DNA from: an uncultured Verrucomicrobiaceae bacterium
GTDB lineage: Bacteria; Pseudomonadota; Gammaproteobacteria; Pseudomonadales; CAMLJR01
Direction of reading: 5' to 3'
NCBI GenBank assembly: GCA_964500675.1
Contig: CAZCNY010000003.1
Location: 240,129 to 304,128 of the forward strand
Length of the DNA stretch: 64,000 nucleotides
Program-made: the position numbers and the translations under genes
In this document: positions 10,926 to 30,986 of the stretch, piece after piece
How the letters are laid out: every line of letters begins with the position of its first letter
How positions within the stretch are numbered: the first letter of the stretch is position 1
Notes under the pieces: model-generated
Databases searched by the model: none
Told to the model about the DNA's origin: nothing
What the model saw: only the letters and a program-made list of their open reading frames with translations

Positions 10926-12530
10926 ATGTCAGACCAGAATTTAATTAATGAAATCAATAGCAGAAGAACTTTTGCTATTATATCGCACCCCGATGCCGGT
11001 AAAACCACGATCACCGAGAAGTTGTTGTTATTCGGGAATCTGATTCAGATCGCAGGCACGGTGAAGGGCAAGAAATCCGATCGCCACGCGACCTCCGATT
11101 GGATGGCGATGGAGCAGGAGCGGGGAATTTCGGTGACCTCTTCCGTGATGCAATTTCCGTATCGCGAGCGCATCGTCAATCTGCTCGATACGCCCGGTCA
11201 CGAAGATTTCTCGGAAGATACTTATCGCACGCTCACTGCAGTTGATTCGGCGCTGATGATTATCGACGGCGCCAAAGGCGTTGAAGAGCGCACGATTAAA
11301 TTAATGAATGTGTGTCGTCTGCGCGATACGCCGATTTTAAGTTTCATCAACAAACTCGACCGCGATATTCGCGACCCGATCGAATTGCTCGATGAAATCG
11401 AAAGCGTATTGAAAATTGCCGCAGCGCCGATCAATTGGCCGATCAGCTCGGGTCCGGATTTTCGCGGCGTGTACAACCTTTACACCGACACGATTCACGT
11501 GTTCGTGAGAGGTCAGGGCCATACGATTCCCGACGATATTCAAATCAAAGGACTCGACAGCGTAGAAGCGCGGCAACTGCTCGGCGACGAAGTCGATAGT
11601 TTTGCCGAGCAGATCGAGCTCGTGCGCGGTGCGAGCCACGAGTTCAACCTCGAAAGCTATTTGGCCGGAAAATTAACGCCGGTATTTTTCGGCACTGCGC
11701 TCGGCAATTTCGGCGTGCGCGAAATGCTTGATGGTTTTGTCGAGTGGGCGCCCGCGCCATTGCCGCGCTTTGCTGACCTTACTGGAAAAGGCGAAAGTCG
11801 TGAAGTCGCGCCGACCGAAACCAAGTTTTCGGGTTTTGTGTTTAAAATCCAGGCCAATATGGACCCGAAACATCGCGACCGCATTGCATTTCTGCGCATC
11901 TGTTCTGGCACATACACCAAAGGTTTGAAAATGCGCCATGTGCGCATCGGCAAAGAGGTAAAAATTGCCGATGCGGTGACGTTCAAGGCGGGCGAGCGCG
12001 AAATGGTCGAGGAGGCGTTCAGCGGCGACATCATCGGTCTGCACAATCACGGTACGATACAAATAGGCGATACGTTCACGGAAGGCGAGGAATTAAAATT
12101 CACGGGCGTGCCGCATTTCGCGCCGGAAATGTTCCGCCTGATTCGGTTAAAGGATCCGATGAAATCAAAGCAGCTGCAAACGGGCTTGAAGCAGTTATCG
12201 GAAGAGGGTTCGACGCAGGTATTCATGCCGTTGCGCAATAACGATCTTGTCGTCGGCGCGGTCGGTATGTTGCAGTTCGAAGTTGTCTCGTATCGCTTGA
12301 AAGATGAATACAAAGTCGATGCGTTTTACGACACCGTGAATGTTTATACCGCGCGCTGGATCGAATGCAGCGATGCGAAAAAATTGGAAGAATTCAGGCA
12401 GAAGGCTTACGAAAACCTCGCGCTCGATGGCGGTGGTCATCTTACCTATCTCGCGCCGACGCGCGTGAATCTGGCGCTGATGGAAGAGCGCTGGCCGGAA
12501 ATTCAATTCCGAGCCACGCGCGAGCACTAG
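10926..12530 (+). CDS. prfC: peptide chain release factor 3 (hybrid gene: element-derived first ~23 codons)
   Basis: 534 aa with GTPase motifs [20 protein letters not shown] and NKLD, and full-length RF3 colinearity. Confidence 0.97.
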
Positions 12531-12550: not shown

Positions 12551-13243
12551 CTAGACGAAACGTCGCGCCGCGATGAGGCCGCAGGCACCGATAAATAACA
12601 GAGCCAAGGCGCTCGGTTCCGGCACGCTAGCCGCGGGTTTCGTATCGTCCTGCGCATCGCTTTGCGGCGTGTGATTGGACTCGTCTTGAGTGCGGTGTTG
12701 TGGTCCGGGCACGGGCGGATTGTGCTCATCGGATGGCTGCGAGCCGGATTGCCCATTCGGTCCGCTGGCTTGTGCATGATCGGCGTGATCCTGCGGCGTG
12801 CTGGAGGATGGCGATCCGCCGGTGCCAGTACCGCCAGCGAAACCTGCGCCCAGCGCGCCGAAAATACGGGTATCGGAGTCGCTGCCAGATGCGCTGCGGC
12901 CATCGTTCTCGTTCACGGCGAAAGTTGTACGCCCGTCGAAATTGTCATGTTTGGGCTCGGCGCGGGGTTCGGTCGGCGCAACCTGTTGTTCGGGTTGTGC
13001 CGATTGCGGTGCGGTTGGCTGTGCGGGAAAGGTTTTCTGGTATCGCGGTGGTTGCGGTTGCGGTCGCAGGGCATTCGAGTTGCGTTTAGGCTCATCGGCG
13101 CTGGCAATTGTGTTGCTCGCAGCATGAGTTAACGTTGGGGCCGGGTTGGCGCCGGCGTGGAAGATCGGCGCGAAGGCTAGGTTGGCGAGGATGACAAAAA
13201 TACCGCTCCCCACGGTTTTAACGGCGAGTTTGCGCTGATTCAT
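12551..13243 (-). CDS. PEP-CTERM sorting-domain protein, low-complexity and Pro/Ala/Gln-rich
   Basis: N-terminal signal peptide. The C-terminus SVPEPSALALLFIGACGLIAARRFV is a PEP motif plus TM helix plus basic tail. Confidence 0.8.
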   Translation of the reverse strand: MNQRKLAVKTVGSGIFVILANLAFAPIFHAGANPAPTLTHAASNTIASADEPKRNSNALRPQPQPPRYQKTFPAQPTAPQSAQPEQQVAPTEPRAEPKHDNFDGRTTFAVNENDGRSASGSDSDTRIFGALGAGFAGGTGTGGSPSSSTPQDHADHAQASGPNGQSGSQPSDEHNPPVPGPQHRTQDESNHTPQSDAQDDTKPAASVPEPSALALLFIGACGLIAARRFV

Positions 13244-17449: not shown

Positions 17450-18481
17450 ATGATGGATGCCGCGACGCAACTTCTGCTGAACCATCTCCGCAATTTGCCC
17501 GGATCGACGCTCTGGTTGGCCGATGAGCAGATCGATCGCGCGGTGATCGCGTCGGCCCCGACGCGTCCAGATCTATTCGCGCTGAGTAATCGCTATGATG
17601 TGGTGGCGGCACTGCGCGCGCGCGGCATCGCGGCAACGCTCAGCGATTTCGATTTGGCGACAGTGCCGCCATTCGCAAGCGCGGTGTTTCGCGTGGCCAA
17701 GGAAAAAGCGGTGGTCCACCATATCATCAATGCGACGCTCGAAAAATTGCCGCCGGGCGGCACATTGACGTTGAGCGGCTACAAAAACGAGGGCGCCAAA
17801 ACCTACTTCGAAAAAGCGGCGATGCGCGCGCGGTGCGAGGTGCGGATCGAACGCGGTAGCGGCGCGCTGCTCGGCGTTATCACGCGCGCTGAAACATTGG
17901 GTGCTGCGCTGGAAGATCAGAATTATGCGCAACCGCGGCAGATGACGGCGGACGGCGATTTCACCGTATGGAGCAAGCCCGGTATTTTTGGCTGGCAAAA
18001 AATCGATGCGGGTTCCGTGTTTCTCGGCGAGCATTTGGCCGAAGTCTGGCCGCGCGCGCCGCAGAGCGTGCTCGATTTAGGTTGCGGTTATGGCTATCTG
18101 ACGATGCACGCTGCGCTGTTATGGCCGGGCGCAAATTTTGTCGCGACCGATAACAACATCGCGGCCACGCAAATTTGCGCGCGCAACATGCAGGAGCGTC
18201 GCATCGATGGCCGTGTTGAGTGCTGCAATTGTGGCGACACGATTCAGAAAACCTTCGATGCGATTCTCTGCAATCCACCATTTCACCAAGGCTTTGCGCA
18301 CGAGAGCGAATTGACCGAAATGTTTTTGCGGCAAACGCAGCGGTTGCTACGGCGCGATGGTCGTGCCATGTTCGTCGTCAATCAATTTATCGCGCTGGAG
18401 AAAATCGCCGAGCCGTTGTTCAAACGCACTGAAATTATCGCGCGCAATAAAAGCTTCAAGCTCATCATGCTGGAGCGCTAG
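17450..18481 (+). CDS. rsmC: 16S rRNA (guanine(1207)-N2)-methyltransferase
   Basis: 343 aa from ATG 17450. The SAM site is VLDLGCGYGYL and the catalytic motif is CNPPFHQG. Confidence 0.85.
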   Translation: MMDAATQLLLNHLRNLPGSTLWLADEQIDRAVIASAPTRPDLFALSNRYDVVAALRARGIAATLSDFDLATVPPFASAVFRVAKEKAVVHHIINATLEKLPPGGTLTLSGYKNEGAKTYFEKAAMRARCEVRIERGSGALLGVITRAETLGAALEDQNYAQPRQMTADGDFTVWSKPGIFGWQKIDAGSVFLGEHLAEVWPRAPQSVLDLGCGYGYLTMHAALLWPGANFVATDNNIAATQICARNMQERRIDGRVECCNCGDTIQKTFDAILCNPPFHQGFAHESELTEMFLRQTQRLLRRDGRAMFVVNQFIALEKIAEPLFKRTEIIARNKSFKLIMLER

Positions 18482-18482
18482 C

Positions 18483-19712
18483 GTGAATGCTGGCTGCAGC
18501 GATCGTGTGCGCGCGGTCTGGCGCGACGAGGCGCTGAGCGGGCATTTCGAGCGATTAACCGAATTGCTCAAAGCGGGCGAACAGTTCTGGCGCCATCACG
18601 CTTTCAAATATTTGCAGTTGCCGTGGGAAAGCGAATTTCCCGAATTGTCGAAGCACCTGCGCGCGTTGTTGCCGGTGGATGCGGAGCGCTTCGCGCGCAA
18701 CGATGCGGCGTTGCGCGCTTCGCTTTGTCAGTATTTGCCGGAGTTGTCTGCGGTGGGAAGCGCCTGTGCAATCGGCGCATTCGATGTCGCACCGCTGCCG
18801 GCGGACGCCGAGCCGCGCGACGTGCCGGGACGCAAATGGCAGCAGATTCGCCACTTCGCACCGTGTGTGCCTGAAAATGAATTTGCGCTGTTGGAGTGGT
18901 GTTCCGGCAAGGCGCATCTCGGACGCATGCTTGCCAAGGGGCGCAATTCATCGATAACCGCACTGGAATACGATGCTGGTCTTGTCGAGGCGGGAAAAAA
19001 ACAAGCGGCGCGCGATCGTGTCGCTATCGATTTTCGCTGTATCGATGTGATGAGCGCCGCAGCGGCCGATGTAATTGGCGAACAGCACAACGCTATCGCG
19101 CTGCATGCGTGCGGTGACTTGCATGTGCGGTTGCTGGCGCTGTGTGCACAAAAAAGAACGCGCACTGTCACGCTCGCGCCGTGTTGCTATCAATTAACTG
19201 GCGATGAAGCGCGCTATACCGTTTCGCAGGCGGCGCGGGTCAGCGGTTTGCGCTTGCAGCGCGATGATCTGCGCACCGCTGTGCACGGCACCGTCACCGC
19301 CGCACCGAGAGAAAGTCGCGCGCGCGAACAATTGCAGGCATGGCGCCTCGGTTTCGATGTGTTGCAGCGCGAGGTGCGAGGGTGCGATGAATACCTGCCG
19401 ACGCCTTCGTTATCGGTGAATGCGCTGAAAGCTGGCTTCGCCACATTTTGTTGCACGCTTGCGGAAATGAAACAAATTAAATTGCCGGACACAGCTGACT
19501 ATCTTCGCTATGAGCGCGCGGGCTACGAGCGTCTGCGCGAAGTCACGGCGCTCGACTTGCCGCGCCTTGCATTCCGGCGCGCGCTGGAGTTGTGGCTGGC
19601 GCTGGATCGCGCCGCGTTCTTGCGCGAGCAGGGTTATGCAGTGACTCTGGGAATGTTCTGCGGGCGCAAATTGACGCCGCGCAACATCCTTATACGGGCG
19701 GAGCGGCGATAG
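18483..19712 (+). CDS. SAM-dependent methyltransferase-like protein of unknown target (Methyltransf_32-like)
   Basis: GTG 18483 lies 1 nt after the rsmC stop. LLEWCSGKAHLGRMLA...ALEYD...ALHACGDLH matches the pattern of this uncharacterised methyltransferase family. The track's upstream start at 18357 would overlap rsmC. Confidence 0.55.
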   Translation: MNAGCSDRVRAVWRDEALSGHFERLTELLKAGEQFWRHHAFKYLQLPWESEFPELSKHLRALLPVDAERFARNDAALRASLCQYLPELSAVGSACAIGAFDVAPLPADAEPRDVPGRKWQQIRHFAPCVPENEFALLEWCSGKAHLGRMLAKGRNSSITALEYDAGLVEAGKKQAARDRVAIDFRCIDVMSAAAADVIGEQHNAIALHACGDLHVRLLALCAQKRTRTVTLAPCCYQLTGDEARYTVSQAARVSGLRLQRDDLRTAVHGTVTAAPRESRAREQLQAWRLGFDVLQREVRGCDEYLPTPSLSVNALKAGFATFCCTLAEMKQIKLPDTADYLRYERAGYERLREVTALDLPRLAFRRALELWLALDRAAFLREQGYAVTLGMFCGRKLTPRNILIRAERR

Positions 19713-19841
19713 ACTTGGCCGTCTAATGATTAGACGCTTACTCGGTATCGATTGCTTGCGCTCGCGCAAACATTTTTCGATCAGGTCGAAGTAAGATCGC
19801 CCAGCTATAATTCGCGCTCGCTCGGACTTTGATGCTCACTT

Positions 19842-20756
19842 ATGCCGATATCGACCACCAAGCTTGTTCTCATTGCGGTATTCGTCGCCTCGGCGGTGTA
19901 CGTGCATTATCGCGGGCGCGTGCGCCATAAGTTCTGGCGCCAGGCATCCGATCATTCGACGCTGATGGCGCCGGTCAACGCATTCATGTACCTGTTCTCG
20001 CGCGTGCCGACCACGCCGTTCGTCGATGTCGCCCGGTTTCCAACCCTGCAAATCCTCGATGCCAACTGGCGCGACATCCGCGAGGAGGCGACGGCGTTGA
20101 TGCGCGCAGGGCAGGTTAAGGCTTCGGATCAGTACAACGATGTCGGCTTTAACTCGTTTTTTAAAAGCGGTTGGAAGCGCTTCTATTTGAAGTGGTACGA
20201 CGACAGTCATCCCTCGGCCAAGGCGCTGTGCCCGAAAACCGTGGCGCTGCTTCAACAGATTCCCGAAGTGAAGGCGGCGATGTTCACGGAATTGCCGCCG
20301 GGCAGCCGGCTCGTGCGCCATCGCGATCCTTACGCGGGTTCGTTGCGCTATCATCTCGGACTCGTCACGCCGAATGCCGAAGGTTGCTACATCGATGTCG
20401 ACGGCGAGCGCTACGCGTGGCGCGACGGCGAAAGTGTGATGTTCGACGAGACGTACATTCACTACGCCGAAAATACCACGCAGCAAGACCGCCTGATTTT
20501 ATTTTGCGATATCGAGCGTCCGCTCAAATACCGTTGGGCGCAGGCTTTCAATCATTGCTTCGGCCGCTATGTAGTAGCGGCGGCGTCGTCGCCGAATGCC
20601 GACAGCGATCGTACGGGCGGCATCAATAAAGTCTTCAAATACCTGTACGCGATACGTCAGTACGGTAAGCGTTTAAAAAAATGGAATCGACACGTCTATT
20701 ATGCGGTGAAATGGCTGTTATTCGGAGCAATAGCTGCTTTACTGATTTTTGCCTGA
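19842..20756 (+). CDS. lpxO: aspartyl/asparaginyl beta-hydroxylase family dioxygenase, LpxO-like lipid A hydroxylase
   Basis: 304 aa with an N-terminal TM helix and a C-terminal TM helix. Motifs include NDVGFNSFFKSGWKRFYLKWY, LVRHRDPYAGSLRYHLGL and MFDETYIHYAEN. Confidence 0.85.
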   Translation: MPISTTKLVLIAVFVASAVYVHYRGRVRHKFWRQASDHSTLMAPVNAFMYLFSRVPTTPFVDVARFPTLQILDANWRDIREEATALMRAGQVKASDQYNDVGFNSFFKSGWKRFYLKWYDDSHPSAKALCPKTVALLQQIPEVKAAMFTELPPGSRLVRHRDPYAGSLRYHLGLVTPNAEGCYIDVDGERYAWRDGESVMFDETYIHYAENTTQQDRLILFCDIERPLKYRWAQAFNHCFGRYVVAAASSPNADSDRTGGINKVFKYLYAIRQYGKRLKKWNRHVYYAVKWLLFGAIAALLIFA

Positions 20757-20817
20757 TTTAAAAATTGTGATATCGATGCACAATAAATTCAAATAGCTCA
20801 ATTGTGTGGAGAACATG

Positions 20818-21069
20818 ATGTCAGTCGAAAGCAAGGTGCGCGCATACATCGCCGAGAATTTTTTGTTTGCCAGCGACACCGTCGATCTGCCCAACGATGC
20901 CTCGTTTCTCGATATGGGCATCATCGATTCCACGGGTATTCTCGAAATTATCTTTTTTATCGAAGAAGAATTTGGCATCAAGGTGCAGGATCACGAAATG
21001 CTGCCCGAAAATCTCGATTCGGTGAACAACATCACGCGCTTTGTCGAAGCGCGGCAGCACGCAAAATGA
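20818..21069 (+). CDS. stand-alone acyl/peptidyl carrier protein
   Basis: GGAG at 20808-20811. The phosphopantetheine site is LDMGIIDSTGILEII. Its stop overlaps the ligase ATG (ATGA). Confidence 0.85.
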   Translation: MSVESKVRAYIAENFLFASDTVDLPNDASFLDMGIIDSTGILEIIFFIEEEFGIKVQDHEMLPENLDSVNNITRFVEARQHAK

Positions 21070-22649
21070 CAGCGCAGCGTCTACTGCACGATAGTTTGTT
21101 TGCCAGCGCGGCGGAATTTTCCGGCAAAAATGCGCTCGTCATCGAGGGTCATCCACACACGTATGCGCAATTGCAGGATGCAACGCTGCGACTGGCCGCG
21201 GCATTGCGCACACGCGGATTGCAGCGTGGCGATCGCGTGGCGATTTACATGGACAACACGTGGCCCTGCGTGGTGTCGATCTTTGCGACGCTGGCGGCCG
21301 GCGGCGTTTTTCTCGTTATCAACCCGCAGACCAAGGCCGATAAACTCGAATTCATTTTGCGCGATAGCGGCGCCAGAATTTTATTGAGCGACGGCCATCT
21401 CGCGCCCGTATTGACACCGGTATTAAAAGAGATCGATTTGCTGCAAGCGGTCATTTGCTCGGGCAAAGCTTTCGCGACCGATGTCGCCGTCGAAGCGTTC
21501 GATGACGTGGTCGCCGCAGCGGAACCGATGGCGCCCGCGCGCGACATCATTCCGCTCGATCTCGCGGCGTTGATTTACACATCGGGCAGCACGGGCAATC
21601 CGAAGGGCGTGATGCAGACACATCAGTCGATGGTGTTTGCGGCCGGCAGCTTGATCGAATATCTACGCCTCGGCGCGCACGATAAAATTTTGTGCGTTCT
21701 ACCCGTCGCATTCGATTACGGCTTGTATCAATTGCTGATGGCGATCCGTCTTGGCGCGACGCTCGTGCTCGAACGCTCATTCACTTATCCCGCGCAAATT
21801 TTTGCGCGCATGCACGAGCAGGGCGTGACGGTATTTCCGGGCGTGCCGACGATTTTCGCGATGCTGCTATCGACGCATAGCCGCAGCCCGCTGCAATTTC
21901 CCGCAGTTACGCGCGTGACGAATACCGCGGCGGCGCTGCCCGACGATTTTGTCGTGCGCCTGCGCGAAATTTTTCCAAATGCGTTGATCTACAAAATGTA
22001 CGGCCTCACCGAGTGCAAGCGTGTGAGTTATCTCGAACCTGAGCTGGCCGACAGCAAACCCGGTTCGGTGGGCAAAGCGATTCCGGGCACCGAGGTGTAT
22101 TTGTTGTCGCCCGAAGGCGAGCCGGTGCCTCGGGGTGAAAGCGGCATTTTGTATGTGCGCGGTCCGCACGTAATGGTGGGGTATTGGAATCGTCCCGATC
22201 TCAGCGGACACATGCTCAAACCCGGCAAACTGCCGGGCGAGCGCGTGTTGTGCACGCAGGATTTTTTTCGCATGGATGCGGAAGGTTTTTTGTATTTCGT
22301 CGGCCGCAGCGACGACATCATCAAAACGCGCGGTGAAAAAGTCAGCCCTGCTGAAGTTGAGAATGTACTTCATGGCATCCCCGGTGTGCGCGAAGCGGCT
22401 GTGATCGGTATTCCCGACGAATTGCTCGGGCAGGCGATCAAGGCGTTCATCGTGCGGGAGCCTTCAGCGCAATTGACCGATAAACAGATTCGTTTGCAGG
22501 CCGCCGCGAAATTGGAAAATTTCATGGTGCCGAAGGAAATTGTTTTCTGCGACGATTTGCCGAAGACGGCGACGGGGAAGGTCAGCAAAAAACTGCTGCT
22601 GGAACAAAAAGAATCGGTGTCGGAACAAAAAGAATCAGGGTCGAAATAA
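21066..22649 (+). CDS. AMP-forming acyl-CoA/acyl-carrier-protein ligase (adenylate-forming enzyme)
   Basis: LIYTSGSTGNPKGV, YGLTE, GRSDDIIKTRGEKVSPAEVE and PKTATGKVSKK are present. The true start is ATG 21066 (MTAQRLL); the track's extension to 20802 overlaps the carrier-protein gene. Confidence 0.9.
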   Translation: MTAQRLLHDSLFASAAEFSGKNALVIEGHPHTYAQLQDATLRLAAALRTRGLQRGDRVAIYMDNTWPCVVSIFATLAAGGVFLVINPQTKADKLEFILRDSGARILLSDGHLAPVLTPVLKEIDLLQAVICSGKAFATDVAVEAFDDVVAAAEPMAPARDIIPLDLAALIYTSGSTGNPKGVMQTHQSMVFAAGSLIEYLRLGAHDKILCVLPVAFDYGLYQLLMAIRLGATLVLERSFTYPAQIFARMHEQGVTVFPGVPTIFAMLLSTHSRSPLQFPAVTRVTNTAAALPDDFVVRLREIFPNALIYKMYGLTECKRVSYLEPELADSKPGSVGKAIPGTEVYLLSPEGEPVPRGESGILYVRGPHVMVGYWNRPDLSGHMLKPGKLPGERVLCTQDFFRMDAEGFLYFVGRSDDIIKTRGEKVSPAEVENVLHGIPGVREAAVIGIPDELLGQAIKAFIVREPSAQLTDKQIRLQAAAKLENFMVPKEIVFCDDLPKTATGKVSKKLLLEQKESVSEQKESGSK

Positions 22650-22678
22650 AACTAATCAAGGCGGGAGCGAAACGAATC

Positions 22679-23614
22679 ATGAGCGATGCGGCGCTTTACG
22701 AAAATTTGAAAAATCAACTCGCGGCGCAATTGCAGTTTCTGCCCGACAAACCCGAAGAAACACTCGATAGCACCGCGCACGCGCTGTGGCACGCCGCTGC
22801 GGGTGCACCTGTTTCCGCGGAATTGGCGCTGCAAATGCCGCTGGAAATACTCGACGCGAAGCAGCAGCAGCGTTTGCGCGAATTGACGCAGCAGCGCCTC
22901 GATGGCATTCCGCTATCGCATATCACGGGCCGTCAGCATTTCATGGGACTCGAAATGTTGGCGACACCTCAAGCGCTGGTACCGCGCCGCGAAACCGAAT
23001 TGCTCGCGCGCACGGCCATCGACCTGGCGCAGCAAATGGTGGAAGCGGCGCGGCAACTCGGCGCCCAGAAAACAGGTGAACAGCCGCCGCACGTTACTGT
23101 GATCGATGTCTGCACCGGCTCGGGCAACGTTGCGCTCGCGATCGCGCAGCATGTCGCCAATGCGCGAGTGTACGCCGCCGATCTCAGCGAAGATGCGGTG
23201 GCATTGGCGCTACGCAACGCGGTGCATTTGGGATTGACGGCGCGCGCGGAATTTCGCGCGAGCGATTTGCTCGCGGCGTTCGATACGCCAGAGTTTTTGG
23301 GAAAAATCGATTTGCTGACGTGCAATCCCCCCTACATCAGCAGCTCGAAAGTCGAGCAGATGCACAGTGAAATTTCCGCGCACGAACCGCATCTCGCGTT
23401 CGATGGCGGTCCCTTCGGCGTGGCGATTTTGATGCGCCTGCTGCAAGAGGCGCCGCGTTTTGTGCGCAGCGGCGGCTGGCTTGCATTCGAAGTCGGTCTC
23501 GGCCAAGGGCCGGCCATGCTTAAGCGCATGGAAAAAAATTCCGCGTTTGCCGAGGCGCGCGCACTGCGCGATGCGGCCGGCGATGTGCGCGCCATTGCAG
23601 CGCGGATCGCCTAA
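22679..23614 (+). CDS. HemK/PrmC-family N-methyltransferase of unknown substrate
   Basis: GRQHFMGLEMLATPQALVPRRETELL, VIDVCTGSGNVALA and the catalytic CNPPYISS are present. Confidence 0.8.
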   Translation: MSDAALYENLKNQLAAQLQFLPDKPEETLDSTAHALWHAAAGAPVSAELALQMPLEILDAKQQQRLRELTQQRLDGIPLSHITGRQHFMGLEMLATPQALVPRRETELLARTAIDLAQQMVEAARQLGAQKTGEQPPHVTVIDVCTGSGNVALAIAQHVANARVYAADLSEDAVALALRNAVHLGLTARAEFRASDLLAAFDTPEFLGKIDLLTCNPPYISSSKVEQMHSEISAHEPHLAFDGGPFGVAILMRLLQEAPRFVRSGGWLAFEVGLGQGPAMLKRMEKNSAFAEARALRDAAGDVRAIAARIA

Positions 23615-24870
23615 TGGAGCCTCTGCGCAAATTGCGCGGCATGCTGCCGTATCTGATCGCGATGTTCATGAATGCCTTCGTCGATCTCGGTCACAAAATC
23701 GTTATCCAAAATACCGTGTTCAAAATTTACGACGGCAATCGTCAGGTCGTGCTCACGGCGATCGTCAACGGTTTGATCCTGCTGCCGTATATCGCATTGT
23801 TCAGTCCCGCGGGTTTTATCTCGGATCGCTTCGCGAAAAATCGCGTGATGCGAATCTCCGCCTGGATTGCGGTGTTGATTACCGCGCTGATTACGCTGTG
23901 CTATTACCAGGGTTGGTTCGTACTGGCGTTTGCGTTGACGCTCGCGCTCGGCGCGCAGGCCGCGATTTATTCGCCGGCGAAATACGGTTATTTAAAACCG
24001 CTCGTTGGCAAGGACCGCTTGGCCGAAGGCAATGGCGCCGTGCAGGCCGTGACCATCGTGGCAATTCTCGCCGGTACCTTCGTATATTCGATTTTATTCG
24101 AGCAGCGTTTCGATCGTTTTGGCGGCGATAACGCGGCGGATATTCTGCGTGCGATCGCACCGCTCGGCTGGTTGCTCGTCATCAACAGTGCGATCGAATT
24201 GTTTTTCACGTATCGCCTGCCGCAGCTTGAAGATGGCGATCCGAGCTTGCGCTTCGTACTCGGCGATTATGCTCGCGGTCGCGTGCTGCGCGGCAATCTT
24301 GCGCCGCTGCGCAAGCGCGCGGTGATTCGCTTATCGATCATCGGGCTCGCGGTATTTTGGGCCGTCAGTCAAGTCATGCTCGCGGCGTTTCCCGCGTTTG
24401 CTAAAGCGTCGCTCGCCATTCACAACACCGTATTGCTGCAGGGCATGTTGGCGACGAGCGGCATCGGCATCATCATCGGTTCGATGCTCGCGGCACATTG
24501 GTCGAAACAGCATATCGAAACCGGTTTGATTCCGGTCGGCGCGCTCGGCATCGCGCTCGGCCTGTCGTGGTTGCCCGCGCTGCACTCGATCGCATTGCAC
24601 TGCGCGAATTTTTTATTTATCGGCGTCATGGGTGGATTGTTCATCGTGCCGCTCAATGCGCTGATTCAATTTCATGCCGGCGAGCACGAGATGGGTCGAG
24701 TGCTCGCCGCCAATAATCTCGTGCAGAACATCGCGATGCTGGGCTTTCTGATTATCACTGCACTTGCCGCAGTGAGCGGCGTCAGCGAGGTGTTGTTACT
24801 GTGGATGATCGCACTCGTGGCGATTATCGGTATGGGGTATACCGTATTCAAATTGCGACGGTCGTGTTAA
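23614..24870 (+). CDS. MFS transporter, LplT-like (lysophospholipid transporter family)
   Basis: Its start overlaps the methyltransferase stop (TAATG). It has about 12 TM helices. NAFVDLGHKIVIQN, SPAGFISDRFAKNRVM and AAIYSPAKYGYL parallel E. coli LplT (ADSFAKGRVM, AAAYSPAKYG). Confidence 0.8.
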   Translation: MEPLRKLRGMLPYLIAMFMNAFVDLGHKIVIQNTVFKIYDGNRQVVLTAIVNGLILLPYIALFSPAGFISDRFAKNRVMRISAWIAVLITALITLCYYQGWFVLAFALTLALGAQAAIYSPAKYGYLKPLVGKDRLAEGNGAVQAVTIVAILAGTFVYSILFEQRFDRFGGDNAADILRAIAPLGWLLVINSAIELFFTYRLPQLEDGDPSLRFVLGDYARGRVLRGNLAPLRKRAVIRLSIIGLAVFWAVSQVMLAAFPAFAKASLAIHNTVLLQGMLATSGIGIIIGSMLAAHWSKQHIETGLIPVGALGIALGLSWLPALHSIALHCANFLFIGVMGGLFIVPLNALIQFHAGEHEMGRVLAANNLVQNIAMLGFLIITALAAVSGVSEVLLLWMIALVAIIGMGYTVFKLRRSC

Positions 24871-24974
24871 TGCCTCTTATCGGCCAATTCCCGTCTTTAA
24901 GTGCAGGCATAAATTGCCGAAATGAACGGCCGCAATATACTTTTCATGTGCCATTGGAAAACCTCTGCCGGTGC

Positions 24975-26012
24975 TTAGATATCGATAACGATCTTGCCGA
25001 TGTGGGTACCCACCTGAAGGTAATGGAAAGCATCAGCCAATCGTTCAAGCGGAAACGTTTTGCCAATCACGGGCTTAATATTATTTGCTTCGATCGCGCG
25101 CACCATATCGATTTGGTCCCGGCGGCTGCCGACAGTTACTGCTTGTAAACAAAGACGCTTGGCTTGAACGATGGCAAATGGCATGGTGTCGATATCGAAA
25201 CCGCCGACTGCGCCGATGATCGCGATATGCCCGCCGGTGCGAGCGGCGACGAAAGACTGACCGATTGTATGCGGACCGCCGACCTCGATCACATGTTCAA
25301 CTCCAATCCCACCCGTTAGCGCCAGCACAGCCTCGCCCCATTTCGGGATCTCGCGGTAATTGATCACATGATCGGCACCTAGCGCTTTTAATTGTTCGAG
25401 CTTTTCAGCACTCGACGATGTAGCGATGACGGTGGCTCCCGCAGCCTTGGCAATCTGCAATGCGAACAGCGAGACACCTCCGCTGCCTTGAACCAGTACG
25501 CGCTCGCCGGGTTTTACCCTGCCGTTGGTAATCAGCGCACGCCACGCGGTGACGCCGACACAGGTGAGCGTAGCACTCTCGGCATGTGTCAGCCCCTTTG
25601 GCGCATGCGTGAAGTGCGTGGCTGGACGCGTGGCGAATTCGCAGGCGAAACCATCGGCCGGCCCGCCGGGCGAATTGCTGAGCTCAGCGCGGTCTATGTG
25701 ATCGCCCAGCCATTTCGGGTGGAAGGTGGAGATAACGGCATCACCGACTTTAAATTCTGTCACACCTTCACCGACTTCAATAACTTCGCCAGCACCATCG
25801 GAGAGCGGGATCAATCCGTCGACGACGGGAAAGAAACCATTAGCGACAAGCCCATCGCGAAAATTCAGAGACGCTGCGCGAATTCGCACTTTGATTTCGT
25901 TGTGACCCGGCGCAGGCGCTTCGGCAGTGTCGAGATAAATATTCTTTAAGCTGGCTGGTTTGCGGACCCGCATCGCTCTCATTCGATAAATCTCCTCGTT
26001 GTTGAGAGCCAC
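24975..26012 (-). CDS. zinc-type alcohol dehydrogenase / quinone oxidoreductase (MDR superfamily)
   Basis: HNEIKVRIRAASLNFRD and the Rossmann motif VLVQGSGGVSLFALQIAK are present. The start may instead be an internal Met at 25982 or 25973. Confidence 0.85.
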   Translation of the reverse strand: MALNNEEIYRMRAMRVRKPASLKNIYLDTAEAPAPGHNEIKVRIRAASLNFRDGLVANGFFPVVDGLIPLSDGAGEVIEVGEGVTEFKVGDAVISTFHPKWLGDHIDRAELSNSPGGPADGFACEFATRPATHFTHAPKGLTHAESATLTCVGVTAWRALITNGRVKPGERVLVQGSGGVSLFALQIAKAAGATVIATSSSAEKLEQLKALGADHVINYREIPKWGEAVLALTGGIGVEHVIEVGGPHTIGQSFVAARTGGHIAIIGAVGGFDIDTMPFAIVQAKRLCLQAVTVGSRRDQIDMVRAIEANNIKPVIGKTFPLERLADAFHYLQVGTHIGKIVIDI

Positions 26013-26291: not shown

Positions 26292-27932
26292 TTAAGCGCT
26301 GCCAAGCGAAGCCAATACGATGCAATTGCGGCCGCTGCCTTTGGCGGCGTAGAGCGCCGAGTCGGCCTGATGCACGAGTTCGCGCGAAGTCTCCGTCGGG
26401 CCAGGCGTGAGCGCGGCAACACCGATGCTGACAGTCAACGTGCGCGCCACTGCGGAATAATCGTGCGGTATGGCTGTCGCCGCTAATTCTTGCTGGATAC
26501 GTTCGGCAATTTTTTGCGCGCTCAATTCCGACGTGTCGGGCAACAAAATGGCAAACTCTTCGCCGCCGTAACGCGCAGCGATATCGGATTGGCGCACGAC
26601 AACACGGCGAATAACGGCCGCAACTTGTTTCAGCGCTTCGTCGCCATGTTGGTGGCCGTAGTGATCGTTGTAATTTTTAAAGTAATCGACGTCGAGCATG
26701 GCCAGTGCGAGCGGTGTGCGCGCGCGCTGCGCAAGTGCCCAATTGTCGGTGAGCGCCTGATCGAAGCGGCGGCGATTGGCGAGCCCGGTTAATCCGTCTT
26801 GAAACGACAGCGCCTGCATTTCTCGGGTCTGCGCCTGCAACTGTTGTTGTTGCACGTGCACGTGTTGTACGAGTGCATCGATGTCGCGACTGAGTTCGCC
26901 GAGTTCGTTGCGCAGCTTGCTGTCGAGCCGCTGTGTGTAATCATCGTTCTCGCGCACTTGACGCAAATAATTGCCGATACCGAGCAAGGGTTGCACGAGG
27001 TGACGTTGCAGCAGGATCAGCACGCCGAGAGCGCCGATCAATCCAGTGATAAACGAGACGGCGAGGGGTAGCGCCCACAAGTCGAGATCGTAGCTGCGTT
27101 GCGGCAGCGTCAGAATCAGTTTCAGCACGGGATTGTTATGGTTATCGCGCAGCAGCCAGCTCAAGCGATTGTTATCGTCGCGATACACCGCATCCTCGGC
27201 GACGACGGGAGCGGTTTTGTCCGCCGCGGTGAGCGGAGCGAAGACGATGGGGATTTGCGCATTTTCTTTGATTTCGTTGCGCAACTCCGCGTCGAAATAG
27301 GTTCCAAATAGCAGGTTCGCGTCGGCTTCGCTGTTGCTGTCGCTGCGCATCACGCTGGCGATGGCGAAGAGCAACGGGCCATCGGCGGTATTGACAAAGC
27401 CGCTGTCGAATATCGGCGCGCGCGGACGCACCTTGCTCAAATCGATGAGGTAAGGCGACAGTGCGGCAAGCGGTATTGGTTTGTCGACAAACTTGGCTTG
27501 CTGTTCGTCGATCACGCGCTGTTCGATGATGCGGTTATTGCGATCGAGCAATGCGACGATGTCGATGTTGAAATTCGTCAGCGTATCGAGCGGAAAACCG
27601 CTTTCAAAAAAACGTTTGTTGAAAAAATGACTGTTGTACGCATTGCTGTTGAAAACGCTGCCTTCGGATTTATCGGCAAATTCGTACATGCCATCCCAAA
27701 TGGCGTCTTTGTACGCGAGGGTGACCAATTGCAATTTTTTGGCATCGATCGCCAGTAGCACCCGGCGCAAATCCTTGTGATCGCTTTGAGCTTCCATTTC
27801 GCGCAGTTTTGGCAGCACGAACCAGTAACGCGTGGCCACTGCCGCGGCGAGGCTCAGGGTCAGCAAACCGGCAGCGACGGCCAGAATGAGTGGCAGCAGT
27901 CGCAGGTTCAGCAGATTGCGCGTGCCCGGCAA
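26292..27932 (-). CDS. membrane diguanylate cyclase with a CHASE4-like periplasmic sensor
   Basis: Two TM helices flank a sensor of about 250 aa (AYKDAIWDGMYEF). A coiled coil follows, then GGDEF (RYGGEEFAILL). The only in-frame start is TTG 27932, 6 nt after the gpx stop. Confidence 0.88.
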   Translation of the reverse strand: MPGTRNLLNLRLLPLILAVAAGLLTLSLAAAVATRYWFVLPKLREMEAQSDHKDLRRVLLAIDAKKLQLVTLAYKDAIWDGMYEFADKSEGSVFNSNAYNSHFFNKRFFESGFPLDTLTNFNIDIVALLDRNNRIIEQRVIDEQQAKFVDKPIPLAALSPYLIDLSKVRPRAPIFDSGFVNTADGPLLFAIASVMRSDSNSEADANLLFGTYFDAELRNEIKENAQIPIVFAPLTAADKTAPVVAEDAVYRDDNNRLSWLLRDNHNNPVLKLILTLPQRSYDLDLWALPLAVSFITGLIGALGVLILLQRHLVQPLLGIGNYLRQVRENDDYTQRLDSKLRNELGELSRDIDALVQHVHVQQQQLQAQTREMQALSFQDGLTGLANRRRFDQALTDNWALAQRARTPLALAMLDVDYFKNYNDHYGHQHGDEALKQVAAVIRRVVVRQSDIAARYGGEEFAILLPDTSELSAQKIAERIQQELAATAIPHDYSAVARTLTVSIGVAALTPGPTETSRELVHQADSALYAAKGSGRNCIVLASLGSA

Positions 27933-27938
27933 GGCGTG

Positions 27939-28421
27939 TTAACCCAGCGCAGCTGCGATGGCCTTTTCAATCTTTTCAGGTTTGGTGGCTGGCGCAAAGC
28001 GCGCGACCACATCGCCGTTGCGATTGATCAGGAACTTGGTGAAATTCCATTTGATCTTCTGACTGCCGAATACGCCCGGCGCAGCCTGCTTTAAGTGCTG
28101 GAACAGCGGATGCGTGGCCGGTCCGTTGACATCGATTTTTGCGAACATTGGAAAGCTCACACCGTAATTGAGCTGACAGAATTGTTCGATTTCGGCATTG
28201 CCGGCGGGATCCTGTTGCGCGAATTGATTGCAGGGAAAGCCGAGAACCGAAAAACCGCGATCGCGGTATTTCTCGTACAATTTTTCCAGGCCATCGAATT
28301 GCGGCGTGAGACCGCATTTGCTCGCGGTATTCACAATGAGCAGCACCTGTCCGCGGTAATTTTCTAGCGCTACCGAATTGCCTTTGATATTGGACGCGTC
28401 AAAGTTGTAAATACTGGTCAT
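27939..28421 (-). CDS. glutathione peroxidase
   Basis: LIVNTASKCGLTPQ, GFPCNQF and WNFTKFL are present. I prefer the start at ATG 28421 (MTSIYNF). Confidence 0.9.
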   Translation of the reverse strand: MTSIYNFDASNIKGNSVALENYRGQVLLIVNTASKCGLTPQFDGLEKLYEKYRDRGFSVLGFPCNQFAQQDPAGNAEIEQFCQLNYGVSFPMFAKIDVNGPATHPLFQHLKQAAPGVFGSQKIKWNFTKFLINRNGDVVARFAPATKPEKIEKAIAAALG

Positions 28422-28654
28422 CGCAATGCTGTTCCAGATCAGTGAAGGGGTTGAGTTGAGTGCGTGCAGGCGCATAGTAGCGCATTGCCGGAGCCGTCGC
28501 GAGCAAACGCGTGCGGTGCTCGCTTCAATGCGGGTCGATATCGCGCTGCGCTTAAGACGTTAGTTGCAACGGGTGGGGGCACGCGCCGGCAAGGCGCGCA
28601 TGAGTTTGCACCGGCAACGTGCGCCGGTGCGTCATTACTTAAATTGCCGTGCGA

Positions 28655-29800
28655 TTACACAAGTTGCAATGTGAGTTGATGCAACCTTTTGCGTTGCAGC
28701 TTGAGCGCGTATTCGAGTTCCTCTAGACGCGAGCTGATTGTGGTCTGGCGCCATTTCTGCTGTAGCTGCGCGGTTTTTTCGGCGAGCTGCATGCGCTTCT
28801 GCTCGTACCATTGTTGGCGCAGGGCATTCCATTCATGCAGGCTGGCGAGAAAATGCTGATACTCGCGTTCGAGGTGTTCGCGCCAGACATCGGCATTCGT
28901 CGCATTCGCGAGACGGTGCTGCGCGCGTTTGAATTGCATGTCGAGCAGCGCTTTTTGAATTTTGAAATCGGGCACACGATTGAGATTGCGTGCCAAGCCG
29001 CACCAGCGCGCGGCATTGATGAACCATTTGGTGGGGTCAAACTGCCACCAGCGCACGCCGTTGCGGTAATCGATTTGGAACAGGTGATGAAAATTGTGAT
29101 AGCCCTCGCCATAAGTGACGAGCGCCAGCCAAAAATTATCGCGTGCCGTGTTGTCGTCGGTATACGGCTGTTTGCCCCAAATGTGCGCGAGCGAATTGAT
29201 GAAAAACGTGACGTGATGGTTGACGACGAGACGCAAAAATCCCATCAGCAACAAATAGCCCCAGATGTCGTCTGCAATTGCGCCAATGCACAGTGGCGGC
29301 ACCAAGTTCGCGGCAATCGCAAGCGGCGCGTAGTGTTTGTGTTGCCACATCACAATCGGATCGCGCTGCAAATCGGCGACGTTGTTGAAGTCGAGTTTGC
29401 CCGTTGGATAGTCGCGCAGCATCCAGCCGATATGCGAGAACCAGAATCCGCGTCGCGCCGAATAGGGATCGTTCGCGTTGTCATCGACATGACGATGATG
29501 GCGGCGATGGCCGGACGCCCACACCAAAATGCTGTTCTGTGTGGCGGCGGCGCCACACAGCGCAAAAAACCATTTCAGCAGCGGCTGTGCCGCATAAGTA
29601 TTGTGCGCGAACAGGCGATGATAACCTGCGGTGATCGACAGTCCATTGCACGCCAAAAACAACCCGAAGGCGAGCCAATTACCCCAGCTGTAGCCATGCG
29701 TAAAGCCGTACCAGGGGACGAGCGTAATCGCGACAATAAACGTGCCGGTCAGAACGGTTGCGGGCAGCCACATGATCGGCGGTTTGGCGGTGTTGGGCAT
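28655..29800 (-). CDS. acyl-CoA (delta-9 type) fatty-acid desaturase
   Basis: Three His boxes are present: HRLFAH, HRRHHRHVD and HNFHHLF. It has four TM helices and a C-terminal coiled-coil tail. Confidence 0.9.
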   Translation of the reverse strand: MPNTAKPPIMWLPATVLTGTFIVAITLVPWYGFTHGYSWGNWLAFGLFLACNGLSITAGYHRLFAHNTYAAQPLLKWFFALCGAAATQNSILVWASGHRRHHRHVDDNANDPYSARRGFWFSHIGWMLRDYPTGKLDFNNVADLQRDPIVMWQHKHYAPLAIAANLVPPLCIGAIADDIWGYLLLMGFLRLVVNHHVTFFINSLAHIWGKQPYTDDNTARDNFWLALVTYGEGYHNFHHLFQIDYRNGVRWWQFDPTKWFINAARWCGLARNLNRVPDFKIQKALLDMQFKRAQHRLANATNADVWREHLEREYQHFLASLHEWNALRQQWYEQKRMQLAEKTAQLQQKWRQTTISSRLEELEYALKLQRKRLHQLTLQLV

Positions 29801-29990
29801 GGTAAACGGTTCTCTAACAGTCAGTGCTGGTCAACGTTTCGATGGTAGACCAATTTCCATGAGCGGCCTAGTTCGGAAAAATACGCACCACGCTATTTGG
29901 CTGGCGAGCGCCCGACCTTTAGCCGCACCTTCGGCGATGGCATCGACCGCGCATAACGCGATGCGGTTCGTGGTCATACGCTGTTCGCGG

Positions 29991-30986
29991 TCAAATGTTG
30001 GGGCTCGGTAATTCCAGCGCGTGGCAAATCGTCGCGGCATTGATCTCGACGCAGGTGCGGCCAGCGCTAATCGCCTCTGCGGCGCGATGGTATTCAAGCA
30101 GGCCGATGTGAGCGACGTGCGGCAACAACATCACGTCGGGCGGTTCGCCCGCCAGCCGGCTGCGTGTGATGCGATCCTGCATGATCGTGATCGCACTCTG
30201 CATGACTTCGAGCGTAGCGGGGCGTTCCTGGCGGTCAGACCACTGTTCTTGATAATCGGACAAGAGTCGGCGGATCGGATTGGCGGCACCGCGCAACGCG
30301 CTGCCGAGGCGGCCGAGCAAATTGGGGTTTTCGCTATTTTCTTCTTCGTCTTCGGGTTGCTCGTCTTCCTCGAGGGTCAATTGCAGCTGCGTGGTCGAGC
30401 GTCGCATCAGCGTACTTGGATTGACTGCGATGACAAGATCGGCCCCCAATGCACGACAAACCGAGACGGGCACGGGATTTACCAGGGCGCCATCGACGAG
30501 CCAGCGGCCGCGTTCAAGTACGGGAGTGATCATGCCTGGAATCGCGATCGACGCGCGTACGGCATCCCAGAGCGATCCGTCCTGCAGCCAGATTTCGCGC
30601 CCTGTGCGCAGATCGGTAGCGATTGCTGCGAAGGCTTTGTTCAAGCTGCTGATATCGGGGTTGCCGTGACTCTTGCTGAGGTGTTCGATCAGCGCCGTGG
30701 CTTCTGCCACCCCGCCTCGCGCCAGCGGCCGGATGCCGAGGTAGCGCAGCACATCGCGAGTGCCGAGCGCGCTGACCCAGGTCGCGAATTCGTGCAGCTG
30801 CCCGGTAACATAACTGGCGCCGACCAATGCGCCGATCGAACAACCGCAGATGATATGCGGTTCAATGCCCATTCTCTGCAGGGCTTGCAGTACGCCGATA
30901 TGTGCAATGCCGCGCGCGGAGCCGGCGCCCAGCGCAATGCCGATTTTTTTATCGCCAAGCGCCGCGGAGCGATTAACTGTGTGCAT
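29991..30986 (-). CDS. patatin-like phospholipase (RssA-like)
   Basis: Oxyanion motif GAGSARG, nucleophile elbow GCSIG and catalytic Asp in VDGALVNP. Confidence 0.9.
   Translation of the reverse strand: MHTVNRSAALGDKKIGIALGAGSARGIAHIGVLQALQRMGIEPHIICGCSIGALVGASYVTGQLHEFATWVSALGTRDVLRYLGIRPLARGGVAEATALIEHLSKSHGNPDISSLNKAFAAIATDLRTGREIWLQDGSLWDAVRASIAIPGMITPVLERGRWLVDGALVNPVPVSVCRALGADLVIAVNPSTLMRRSTTQLQLTLEEDEQPEDEEENSENPNLLGRLGSALRGAANPIRRLLSDYQEQWSDRQERPATLEVMQSAITIMQDRITRSRLAGEPPDVMLLPHVAHIGLLEYHRAAEAISAGRTCVEINAATICHALELPSPNI

Follow-up and report, generated by a model that had tools for sequence, protein, structure and literature searches.

Stand-alone adenylation enzymes that work together with a carrier protein are known from several systems, among them VinN/VinL, Dlt, Alm and the ligase associated with exosortase A (XrtA). 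VinN binds (2S,3S)-3-methylaspartate, and also L-aspartate, as a β-amino acid; its residue D230 holds the amino group, F231 and S299 shape the pocket, and K330 and R331 in the shortened β13-β14 loop are key residues (PMC11253843). In Vibrio cholerae, AlmE and AlmF load glycine for the modification of lipopolysaccharide (PMC11253843). Here we analyzed a locus of five genes in a 64-kb stretch of contig CAZCNY010000003.1 (the window, to whose positions all coordinates refer), in which genes for a carrier protein (acyl carrier protein, ACP), an AMP-ligase and a methyltransferase resembling PrmC/HemK stand between lpxO and a gene for an LplT-like member of the major facilitator superfamily (MFS). 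The locus is a composite of resident lipid genes and a three-gene module (ACP, ligase and methyltransferase, hereafter the trio) that is absent from this site in three relatives.

The glycine delivered by AlmEFG is esterified to the hydroxylated acyl chain of lipid A. In VinN, we take K330 and R331 to hold the α-carboxylate, and VinO is presumably the pyridoxal phosphate (PLP) decarboxylase of vicenistatin biosynthesis; similarly, we assume that the PLP decarboxylase TIGR03099 accompanies the TIGR03098 ligase and its ACP. PrmC methylates the carboxamide of the glutamine in the GGQ motif of the release factors RF1 and RF2, and RF3 is not among its substrates. Housekeeping prmC usually occurs once per genome, linked with prfA or hemA. 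LpxO belongs to the Asp/Asn β-hydroxylase superfamily. LplT is a lysophospholipid flippase and Aas an enzyme of re-acylation; fusions of the two in a single open reading frame (ORF) have been mentioned as uncharacterized (PMC11416262).

A preliminary description of the window had read the five genes as one envelope-lipid remodeling cluster, with ACP-ligase pairs of exosortase or exopolysaccharide (EPS) loci as an alternative. As that description stated, the genes are tightly linked, and all lie on the plus strand:

19842-20756, plus strand: lpxO, lipid A 2-hydroxylase, 304 aa; a backbone gene outside the trio
20818-21069, plus strand: carrier protein (ACP), 83 aa, PP-binding; first gene of the trio
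21066-22649, plus strand: AMP-ligase, 527 aa, AMP-binding and AMP-binding_C domains, VinN-like
22679-23614, plus strand: PrmC/HemK-like N-methyltransferase, 311 aa, HemK/PrmC match; member of a cassette-bound subfamily
23614-24870, plus strand: LplT-like MFS protein, 418 aa, ~12 transmembrane (TM) segments; N-terminal domain of an LplT-Aas fusion

Both overlaps that had been pointed out are in the sequence: the ACP stop codon overlaps the ligase start in ATGA (21066-21069), and the methyltransferase stop codon overlaps the MFS start in TAATG (23612-23616). The ligase and methyltransferase genes are separated by a 29-nt gap containing GGGAG. For the ACP, the listed ORF begins at GTG 20806, and ATG codons at 20815 and 20818 follow a GGAG at 20808-20811; an independent gene call placed the start at 20818. 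The motifs IIDSTG (ACP), CNPPYI (methyltransferase) and AIYSPAKYG (MFS) were all seen. A terminator-like site lies upstream of lpxO (19756-19769), and none was found in the intergenic gaps inside the five-gene locus. Promoter-like sites were not more frequent than in shuffled sequence.

The trio is the core of a cassette found in polysaccharide loci

Context maps of methyltransferase homologues were drawn from assemblies, GTDB genomes and JGI metagenomes and compared by tblastn. A single-protein scan of genome contigs yielded only 16 loci, and an alignment-based metagenome scan was added for numbers; in the latter, 484 of the 600 listed stretches, and hence at least 484, encode a relative of the methyltransferase. 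The best 120 matches are 59-100% identical to the window copy. For co-occurrence, neighbors within 4 kb were counted in the 32 loci whose sequence extends 4 kb or more to either side of the methyltransferase gene. An ACP was present in 31 of these 32 loci, a NadE-like ATP-pyrophosphatase (PRK00876, 459 bits) in 29, an AsnB-type glutamine amidotransferase in 28 and the cognate ligase in at least 27. LpxO and the LplT-like MFS protein were found in one locus each, and the single locus with both is a sister of the window. The reading as one lipid remodeling cluster was therefore not borne out, as the four genes from the ACP to the MFS gene are not co-conserved beyond one narrow clade.

A cassette of five genes, with the trio as its core and the AsnB-type and NadE-type genes as further members, occurs in EPS/PEP-CTERM-type polysaccharide loci of many phyla. 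Neighbors of the cassette include glycosyltransferases, Wzy/Wzx-type genes, polysaccharide deacetylases, FemAB-like acetyltransferases and PEP-CTERM proteins, and a weakly GNAT-like or SGNH-like protein is often encoded 3′ of the full cassette. Its hosts include Rhodanobacteraceae, Dokdonella, Methylibium, Aquabacterium, Rhodocyclaceae, Gemmatimonadota, Acidobacteriota and Ignavibacteriota. These contexts favor the alternative of the preliminary description, an ACP-ligase pair of the EPS/exosortase type.

The trio was also found by itself, in one metagenome-assembled genome (MAG) of Spongiibacteraceae (L110) between nadA and another ligase gene, and in L101 beside an M20 peptidase gene. In a neighbor-joining tree of the ligase and the methyltransferase, the window clade nests among full cassettes, nearest to L005 and L001, and trio-only copies are scattered; such reduced copies arose several times. 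The ratio of nonsynonymous to synonymous substitution rates (dN/dS) in the trio is 0.06-0.07 for the ACP and the ligase and 0.10-0.17 for the methyltransferase, at dS ~0.9-1.5, and by this measure the trio appears to be functional.

Related genomes carry the site without the trio

Two sets of relatives were compared with the window. The window-clade assemblies L007, L024 and L026 have methyltransferases 76-80% identical to that of the window, and the backbone relatives L027, L028 and L029 were found by searching with the window MFS protein. The order LpxO-ACP-ligase-methyltransferase is common to the window and the three clade assemblies, and across these four assemblies the proteins of the LpxO-ACP-ligase-methyltransferase(-MFS) genes are 76-89% identical. 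Comparison of the five window genes with the three clade assemblies gave dN/dS of 0.03-0.17 at dS ~0.8-2.5, i.e. purifying selection. The recurrence of the order under such selection means that the arrangement is not a chance juxtaposition of ORFs.

The locus is set in a conserved backbone, which runs from the RsmC-like methyltransferase and the Methyltransf_32 protein through the locus itself to a GGDEF gene on the minus strand, followed in L027 and L028 by a glutathione peroxidase gene, likewise on the minus strand. In the window the flanking genes are as follows:

17450-18481, plus strand: RsmC-like methyltransferase (Pfam MTS, 142 bits); upstream backbone
18483-19712, plus strand: Methyltransf_32 protein (Pfam, 63 bits); upstream backbone
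24975-25982, minus strand: zinc-type alcohol dehydrogenase/quinone reductase (ADH_zinc_N and ADH_N); the listed ORF extends to a GTG at 26012
26292-27932, minus strand: CHASE4-GGDEF protein; downstream backbone
27939-28475, minus strand: glutathione peroxidase; downstream backbone

The RsmC-like and Methyltransf_32 genes precede the locus in L026, L027, L028 and L029, whether the trio is present or absent. The GGDEF and glutathione peroxidase genes are syntenic in L007, L027 and L028, and L029 has the GGDEF gene; the L024 contig ends after the GGDEF gene, so that only this gene is visible downstream. The trio is missing from the backbone of all three relatives: in L028 the MFS gene starts 6 nt after LpxO, in L029 LpxO is followed by MFS-PlsC-acyl-ACP synthetase (AAS), and L027, which lacks LpxO as well, retains only the MFS gene. 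The methyltransferase is thus absent from the syntenic site in all three. Since this adjacency of LpxO and the MFS gene exists with no trio in L028 and L029, the two are neighbors in their own right, and the trio intervenes only in the window clade. Its position beside lpxO and lplT may give co-expression; it does not amount to conserved functional coupling. No flanking repeats and no compositional break were found at the inserted trio.

The lpxO assignment of the preliminary description was confirmed: the protein directly upstream of the trio matches the NCBIfam equivalog NF033391 with 540.3 bits (cutoff 500) over positions 1-296 of 297, and Pfam Asp_Arg_Hydrox (PF05118) with 176 bits. What looked like an exotic lipid-remodeling operon is mostly the junction of two units.

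The MFS gene is a truncated LplT-Aas fusion

The window MFS protein matches positions 5-410 of PRK08633, the fused "acyl-[ACP]--phospholipid O-acyltransferase", with 444.6 bits (E 7e-133), which identifies an LplT-type MFS domain. The parallel with LplT drawn in the preliminary description holds at the level of the LplT/Aas family but not at that of the stand-alone E. coli LplT equivalog (NF008397), where the protein scored 137.5 bits and the cutoff is 297. The next gene downstream of the methyltransferase gene in L007 and L024 encodes an MFS-PlsC-AMP-ligase fusion of 1154 and 1153 aa, respectively, and the L007 fusion is a full family member (PRK08633, 1545 bits against a cutoff of 1221). With the MFS part of these two fusions the window protein shares 87-89% identity. 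The homology, in DNA and in protein, ends at position 24865, in the MFS/PlsC linker and five bases before the stop codon. The window protein has the tail ...FKLRRSC*, and the fusions run on with ...KLPQSFVRFIVAYLL... into the PlsC domain, the continuation at the linker reading ...(F/V)KLPQSFVRF.... The site of the lost 2.2-kb PlsC-AAS region is occupied by a 104-nt spacer and the minus-strand dehydrogenase gene (24871-26012). This segment has no counterpart in L007, L024, L027 and L028, and synteny resumes at ~26306-26320, in the GGDEF gene. The window MFS gene is therefore an LplT-Aas fusion gene that lost its PlsC and acyl-ACP-synthetase domains.

No PlsC-type acyltransferase was found anywhere in the 64 kb, in agreement with the preliminary description, which had proposed a search for one; there is no adjacent aas, and the only AAS-like match in the 64 kb is the ligase of the trio, at 30% identity. 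The same description had the methyltransferase sitting in place of the acyltransferase, and this part does not stand: the acyltransferase looks missing because the fusion was cut after its MFS domain, and what was lost is the C-terminal part of the MFS gene itself.

The MFS genes of L027 and L028 end at the same linker with different tails (window, 24860-24975; L027, ~11240-11251, ...IKLPR*; L028, ~11245-11257, ...KNLWSLL*), and therefore the Aas half was lost at least three times. The truncated copies have dN/dS of 0.12-0.19 and keep ~12 hydrophobic segments. The shortened protein survives as a stand-alone flippase-type MFS protein. The repeated loss of the Aas half, with the flippase kept, bears on a possible Aas-independent role of LplT. 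In the nanopore-derived contig of L029 (L029:10001-13461), MFS and PlsC-AAS were called as two genes and the C-terminus of MFS is garbled; a frameshift error has probably split what is an intact fusion gene.

The ligase has a VinN-like specificity segment

The ligase matches the AMP-binding family with 309 bits. Its best NCBIfam match is the exosortase-A-associated ligase TIGR03098, with 440.4 bits, which is below the cutoff of 592.35. Among whole-length PDB matches, adenylation (A) domains of nonribosomal peptide synthetases (NRPS) reached 287 bits, VinN 270 bits and FadD13 195 bits; AlmE and DltA are not among the best 60. A separate search with the specificity segment (residues 213-349) gave VinN with 91 bits, the next match having 38. 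Three pairs of corresponding motifs stand out, namely FDYGLYQ in the window and WDFGLYK in VinN, TNTAAALP and TNSAAALP, and MYGLTECKRV and MYGQTECKRI. The window residues that align with VinN D230, F231, S299, K330 and R331 are D, Y, T, K and R, which makes a VinN-type pocket, and the cores FDYGLYQ, TNTAAAL and TE(C/S)KR are kept in 20 of 20 cassette ligases, down to 45% identity. From this pocket we infer an aspartate-type acid, and the ligase is predicted to load it on the carrier through the side-chain carboxyl group.

A fatty-acyl ligase of the Aas or FadD type was considered and rejected. The identity to the AAS domain of the L007 fusion is only 25-30%, NRPS A domains and VinN are closer than FadD13, and the A4 position has an FD motif instead of the fatty-acyl type. 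Of the three placements that the preliminary description had suggested for the ligase, neither the Aas-like nor the FadD-like one holds and DltA is outside the best PDB matches; the enzyme is VinN-like instead. No decarboxylase was found in the window or in the cassette loci examined.

Two observations on the ligases may be added. The 3′ end of the window gene (22587-22649) encodes a short imperfect tandem repeat, (EQKESxS)x2, by GGAACAAAAAGAATC... twice, which is absent from most homologues. In Dokdonella (L003:1-2752), a second ACP/ligase pair with a closely similar VinN-like pocket (FDYGLYQ, TNTAAAL, MYGMTESKRC) lies beside a PALP-family PLP enzyme, 7 kb upstream of an AsnB-ACP-methyltransferase-NadE set that has no ligase of its own.

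That the ligase has its own carrier, as the preliminary description held, is confirmed by the PP-binding match of the ACP (25 bits against 20.8) and its IIDSTG motif. IIDSTGxLEL and PENLDS are conserved across 64 distinct ACP homologues. No conserved glutamine occurs in these 64 homologues, and methylation of the ACP itself was therefore rejected. Among NCBIfam models the ACP scored best with the OlsH/OlsI carrier, but its 56 bits fall short of the cutoff of 130. OlsH, a GH3-type enzyme (PMC12493201), is absent here, and a link to this system was rejected.

The methyltransferase belongs to a cassette-bound subfamily of PrmC-like enzymes

The identification of the enzyme as a PrmC-type NPPY methyltransferase stands. 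An AlphaFold2 model (pLDDT 87) was compared with E. coli PrmC (2b3t_A) in Foldseek and gave full-length TM-scores of 0.72/0.81; the two-domain PrmC fold is present, and the superposition includes the N-terminal protein-docking domain. The active-site motifs PRxETE and NPPY (CNPPYI) are kept, and motif I for S-adenosylmethionine (SAM) reads DVCTGSG. At the sequence level the window enzyme matches E. coli PrmC (2b3t) with 83 bits and ~25% identity. Copies from Gemmatimonadota, Ignavibacteriota, Burkholderiales and Xanthomonadales, all in the same cassette, are 47-66% identical to the window enzyme. Set against the ~25% identity to E. coli PrmC, this cross-phylum similarity points to an accessory, horizontally spread paralogue. 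The subfamily has near-invariant motifs of its own, namely LPDKP(E/G/D)E in the N-terminal part, C(N/A)PPYI, EPxLAFDGG and EVGLGQ.

The PrmC model TIGR03534 is passed marginally, with 204.5 bits for the window copy and 204.1 for the Dokdonella cassette copy against a cutoff of 199.1. This marginal pass explains why JGI and PGAP name homologues release-factor glutamine methyltransferases, as for instance at L003:10001-10891 in a Dokdonella MAG. For the cassette subfamily the naming is probably a systematic mis-annotation: the subfamily clears the PrmC model by a few bits, yet its genomic behavior is that of an accessory tailoring enzyme.

Compared with members of 296-299 aa, the window enzyme has an insertion of ~12-15 residues at ~23030-23075 (residues ~118-133), in the helix after PRRETE; P0003 has a shorter version.

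Genomic surroundings

The remaining window is core chromosome (prfC, proA, nadD, mrdA, rodA, mltB, rlpA, dacA and lipA). The ProA protein is 90% identical to proteins of Spongiibacteraceae MAGs, by which the host appears to be a Cellvibrionales-type, Spongiibacteraceae-like gammaproteobacterium. Scans of the whole window for RNA elements with Rfam (gathering thresholds) and for tRNAs gave nothing. Three further features bear on the discussion below:

10926-12530, plus strand: prfC (release factor 3), 8 kb upstream of the PrmC-like gene
12551-13243, minus strand: PEP-CTERM protein, 230 aa (PF07589, 24.2 bits against a cutoff of 20.7)
28655-30986, minus strand: fatty-acid desaturase and patatin-like phospholipase, just downstream of the backbone

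The PEP-CTERM protein, which the preliminary description had noticed, ends in a canonical sorting signal (...VPEPSALALLFIGACGLIAARRFV), and therefore the organism has an exosortase system. No EPS locus was found in the window, despite this protein. The desaturase is also present in L028 and L029 and the patatin gene in L029, so that there is a small lipid-related neighborhood around lpxO and lplT.

A predicted pathway and its alternatives

To account for the composition of the cassette, we propose a pathway of four steps. The VinN-like ligase would adenylate an aspartate-type acid at its side-chain carboxyl and thioesterify it to the carrier, giving β-aspartyl-S-ACP with the α-amino group and the α-carboxylate free. 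In full cassettes, the AsnB-type enzyme, the NadE-type enzyme or both would turn the free carboxylate into a primary amide. The PrmC-like enzyme would then N-methylate this amide or, less likely, the amine, and an acyltransferase encoded elsewhere would move the group to a surface glycan. In the genome of the window, the amidating partners might act in trans, or the methyltransferase might have another target, such as the free amine. PrmC methylates a carboxamide presented by a protein, and a carboxamide borne by phosphopantetheine on a carrier would be its natural analogue. By this analogy, it is likely that a β-aspartyl-type group on the carrier is N-methylated, probably on the amide, for a surface glycan. 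We also considered whether LpxO hydroxylates aspartate on the carrier; this was rejected, as the protein scores as the LpxO equivalog and L028 and L029 combine it with the MFS gene in the absence of the trio.

A more far-reaching version holds that a PrmC paralogue switched its substrate to a carrier-tethered acyl group and N-methylates an isoasparaginyl-type (β-aspartyl α-amide) thioester, to give an N-methyl-amide decoration of EPS or, in this clade, of envelope lipid; we regard this version as possible, though rather doubtful. As a whole, a composite locus with a trio that loads and N-methylates an aspartate-type group is the best explanation of the data, and we hold it to be somewhat probable.

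Several points weigh against this explanation. The ligase substrate is read from five aligned residues and the analogy to one solved enzyme, and the target of the methyltransferase, for which we prefer the amide, might be an amide, an amine or even a protein. Neither an AsnB-type or NadE-type partner nor a transferase was found within the 64 kb, so that here an amide for the methyltransferase would have no visible source. The tree is a simple neighbor-joining tree with no support values. We found no published description of the cassette in the literature; the Rubrivivax EPS paper gives only wbpS-type AsnB genes. Finally, the genes lie on one strand and are closely spaced, with the MFS start overlapping in TAATG, so that one transcript could carry them all, and given this packing with no internal terminator found, a clade-specific functional link with the lipid genes may exist.

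Such a link would be realized if the five genes formed a clade-specific envelope-lipid aminoacylation system resembling AlmEFG. LpxO would hydroxylate the lipid A acyl chain, the ligase and the carrier would supply an N-methylated aminoacyl group, and a PlsC-type domain (the one fused to MFS in the sisters) or another acyltransferase would esterify lipid A or an imported lysophospholipid. The genes lie on one strand with overlaps or short gaps and no terminator-like site between them, and the order LpxO-ACP-ligase-methyltransferase(-MFS) recurs in four assemblies with dN/dS of at most 0.17; these assemblies are, however, close relatives, so the order may reflect plain inheritance. LpxO and MFS also occur without the trio (L028 and L029), and the trio without LpxO and MFS (L110, L101 and ~30 cassette loci). 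The absence of AsnB- and NadE-type partners from the window would fit a changed use of the trio, whereas the ligase shares its pocket, without change, with the ligases of EPS cassettes and would load the same acid. AlmEFG offers a precedent, and a desaturase and a patatin-like phospholipase are encoded nearby, but the 60 best PDB matches of the ligase do not include AlmE. Moreover, the window has lost the sole PlsC domain of the locus, and in the fusions this domain belongs to a bona fide Aas-type protein. Taken together, we consider an AlmEFG-like system unlikely.

Two further explanations were considered. The preliminary description had allowed that the methyltransferase might be the housekeeping PrmC, which would then stand in the locus by chance. 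The enzyme folds like PrmC over its full length, N-terminal domain included, keeps NPPY, passes the TIGR03534 cutoff by 5 bits, has homologues named accordingly by JGI and PGAP and is encoded 8 kb from prfC. We rejected the last point as evidence for a role in translation, as prfC is syntenic in L027 and L029, which have no methyltransferase, and RF3 is no substrate of PrmC; the proximity looks coincidental. A housekeeping gene is also hard to reconcile with its absence from the site in the backbone relatives L027-L029, with a dedicated ACP in 31 of the 32 loci and a ligase and amidating enzymes in most, with an identity of 47-66% across phyla against ~25% to E. coli PrmC, and with the near-invariant LPDKPEE motif. 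This explanation is very unlikely. The trio might, on the other hand, be a non-functional remnant of an EPS cassette, stranded by rearrangement, next to an MFS gene that is likewise decaying. The AsnB-like and NadE-like genes and a transferase are indeed absent from the 64 kb, and the MFS gene is visibly truncated by deletion and replacement. Set against this are ORFs that are intact in four diverged assemblies (trio dS ~0.9-1.5, dN/dS 0.06-0.17), a ligase pocket and methyltransferase motifs that are unchanged, and stand-alone MFS copies that are constrained in three lineages (dN/dS 0.12-0.19, ~12 TM segments); decay is highly improbable.

On the preferred explanation, a composite locus whose trio loads and N-methylates an aspartate-type group, the cassette predicts an aspartate-derived, amidated and N-methylated surface acyl group, which as far as we know is undescribed. 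The prediction is testable in culturable carriers of the cassette such as Rhodanobacter fulvus Jip2.

Comparison with known systems

In its MFS gene, the locus is tied to E. coli LplT-Aas and the PRK08633 fusions: the window protein corresponds to the LplT-like domain, and sister genomes carry the complete fusion. It differs in that the PlsC and acyl-ACP-synthetase domains are deleted and the score stays below the LplT equivalog cutoff.

Like the trio, AlmEFG and DltABCD pair a carrier with a ligase that activates an amino acid, and an envelope polymer or lipid is decorated by this means (PMC11253843). Neither an AlmG (LPLAT-type) nor a DltB (MBOAT) or DltD transferase was found in the window, however, the ligase pocket is VinN-like, with a Lys-Arg loop, and not of the glycine or D-alanine type, and a methyltransferase is added. 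The XrtA-associated ligase TIGR03098, the best NCBIfam match, shares EPS/PEP-CTERM contexts with the full cassette. The window ligase is below the TIGR03098 cutoff, and its partners are the methyltransferase and amidating enzymes, not the PLP decarboxylase TIGR03099.

The methyltransferase shares with PrmC/HemK (2B3T, and 1NV8 from T. maritima) the two-domain fold, SAM motif I, PRxxTE, NPPY and a flexible loop after NPPY. In contrast to PrmC, to which it is ~25% identical, it has its own N-terminal motif and a patchy distribution across phyla, and its gene is linked to an ACP gene (31 of 32 loci) and mostly to a ligase gene too, not to prfA. Where PrmC acts on the GGQ loop of RF1/RF2, this enzyme would presumably act on an amide tethered to a carrier.

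VinN/VinL likewise consists of a stand-alone ligase with its own small carrier. The window ligase matches VinN with 270 bits over the whole length, and VinN is by far the best match of the specificity segment, D230, K330 and R331 being identical and the changes of F231 to Tyr and S299 to Thr conservative. Overall identity is modest, and no polyketide synthase is involved: the trio is found in polysaccharide loci and here beside lipid genes. The enzyme that follows is a PrmC-like methyltransferase, joined in full cassettes by AsnB-type and NadE-type enzymes, and not the PLP decarboxylase VinO. The trio and its parent cassette are thus a variant of the stand-alone adenylation enzyme and carrier logic of VinN/VinL, Dlt, Alm and the XrtA-associated ligase, into which a PrmC paralogue has been recruited.

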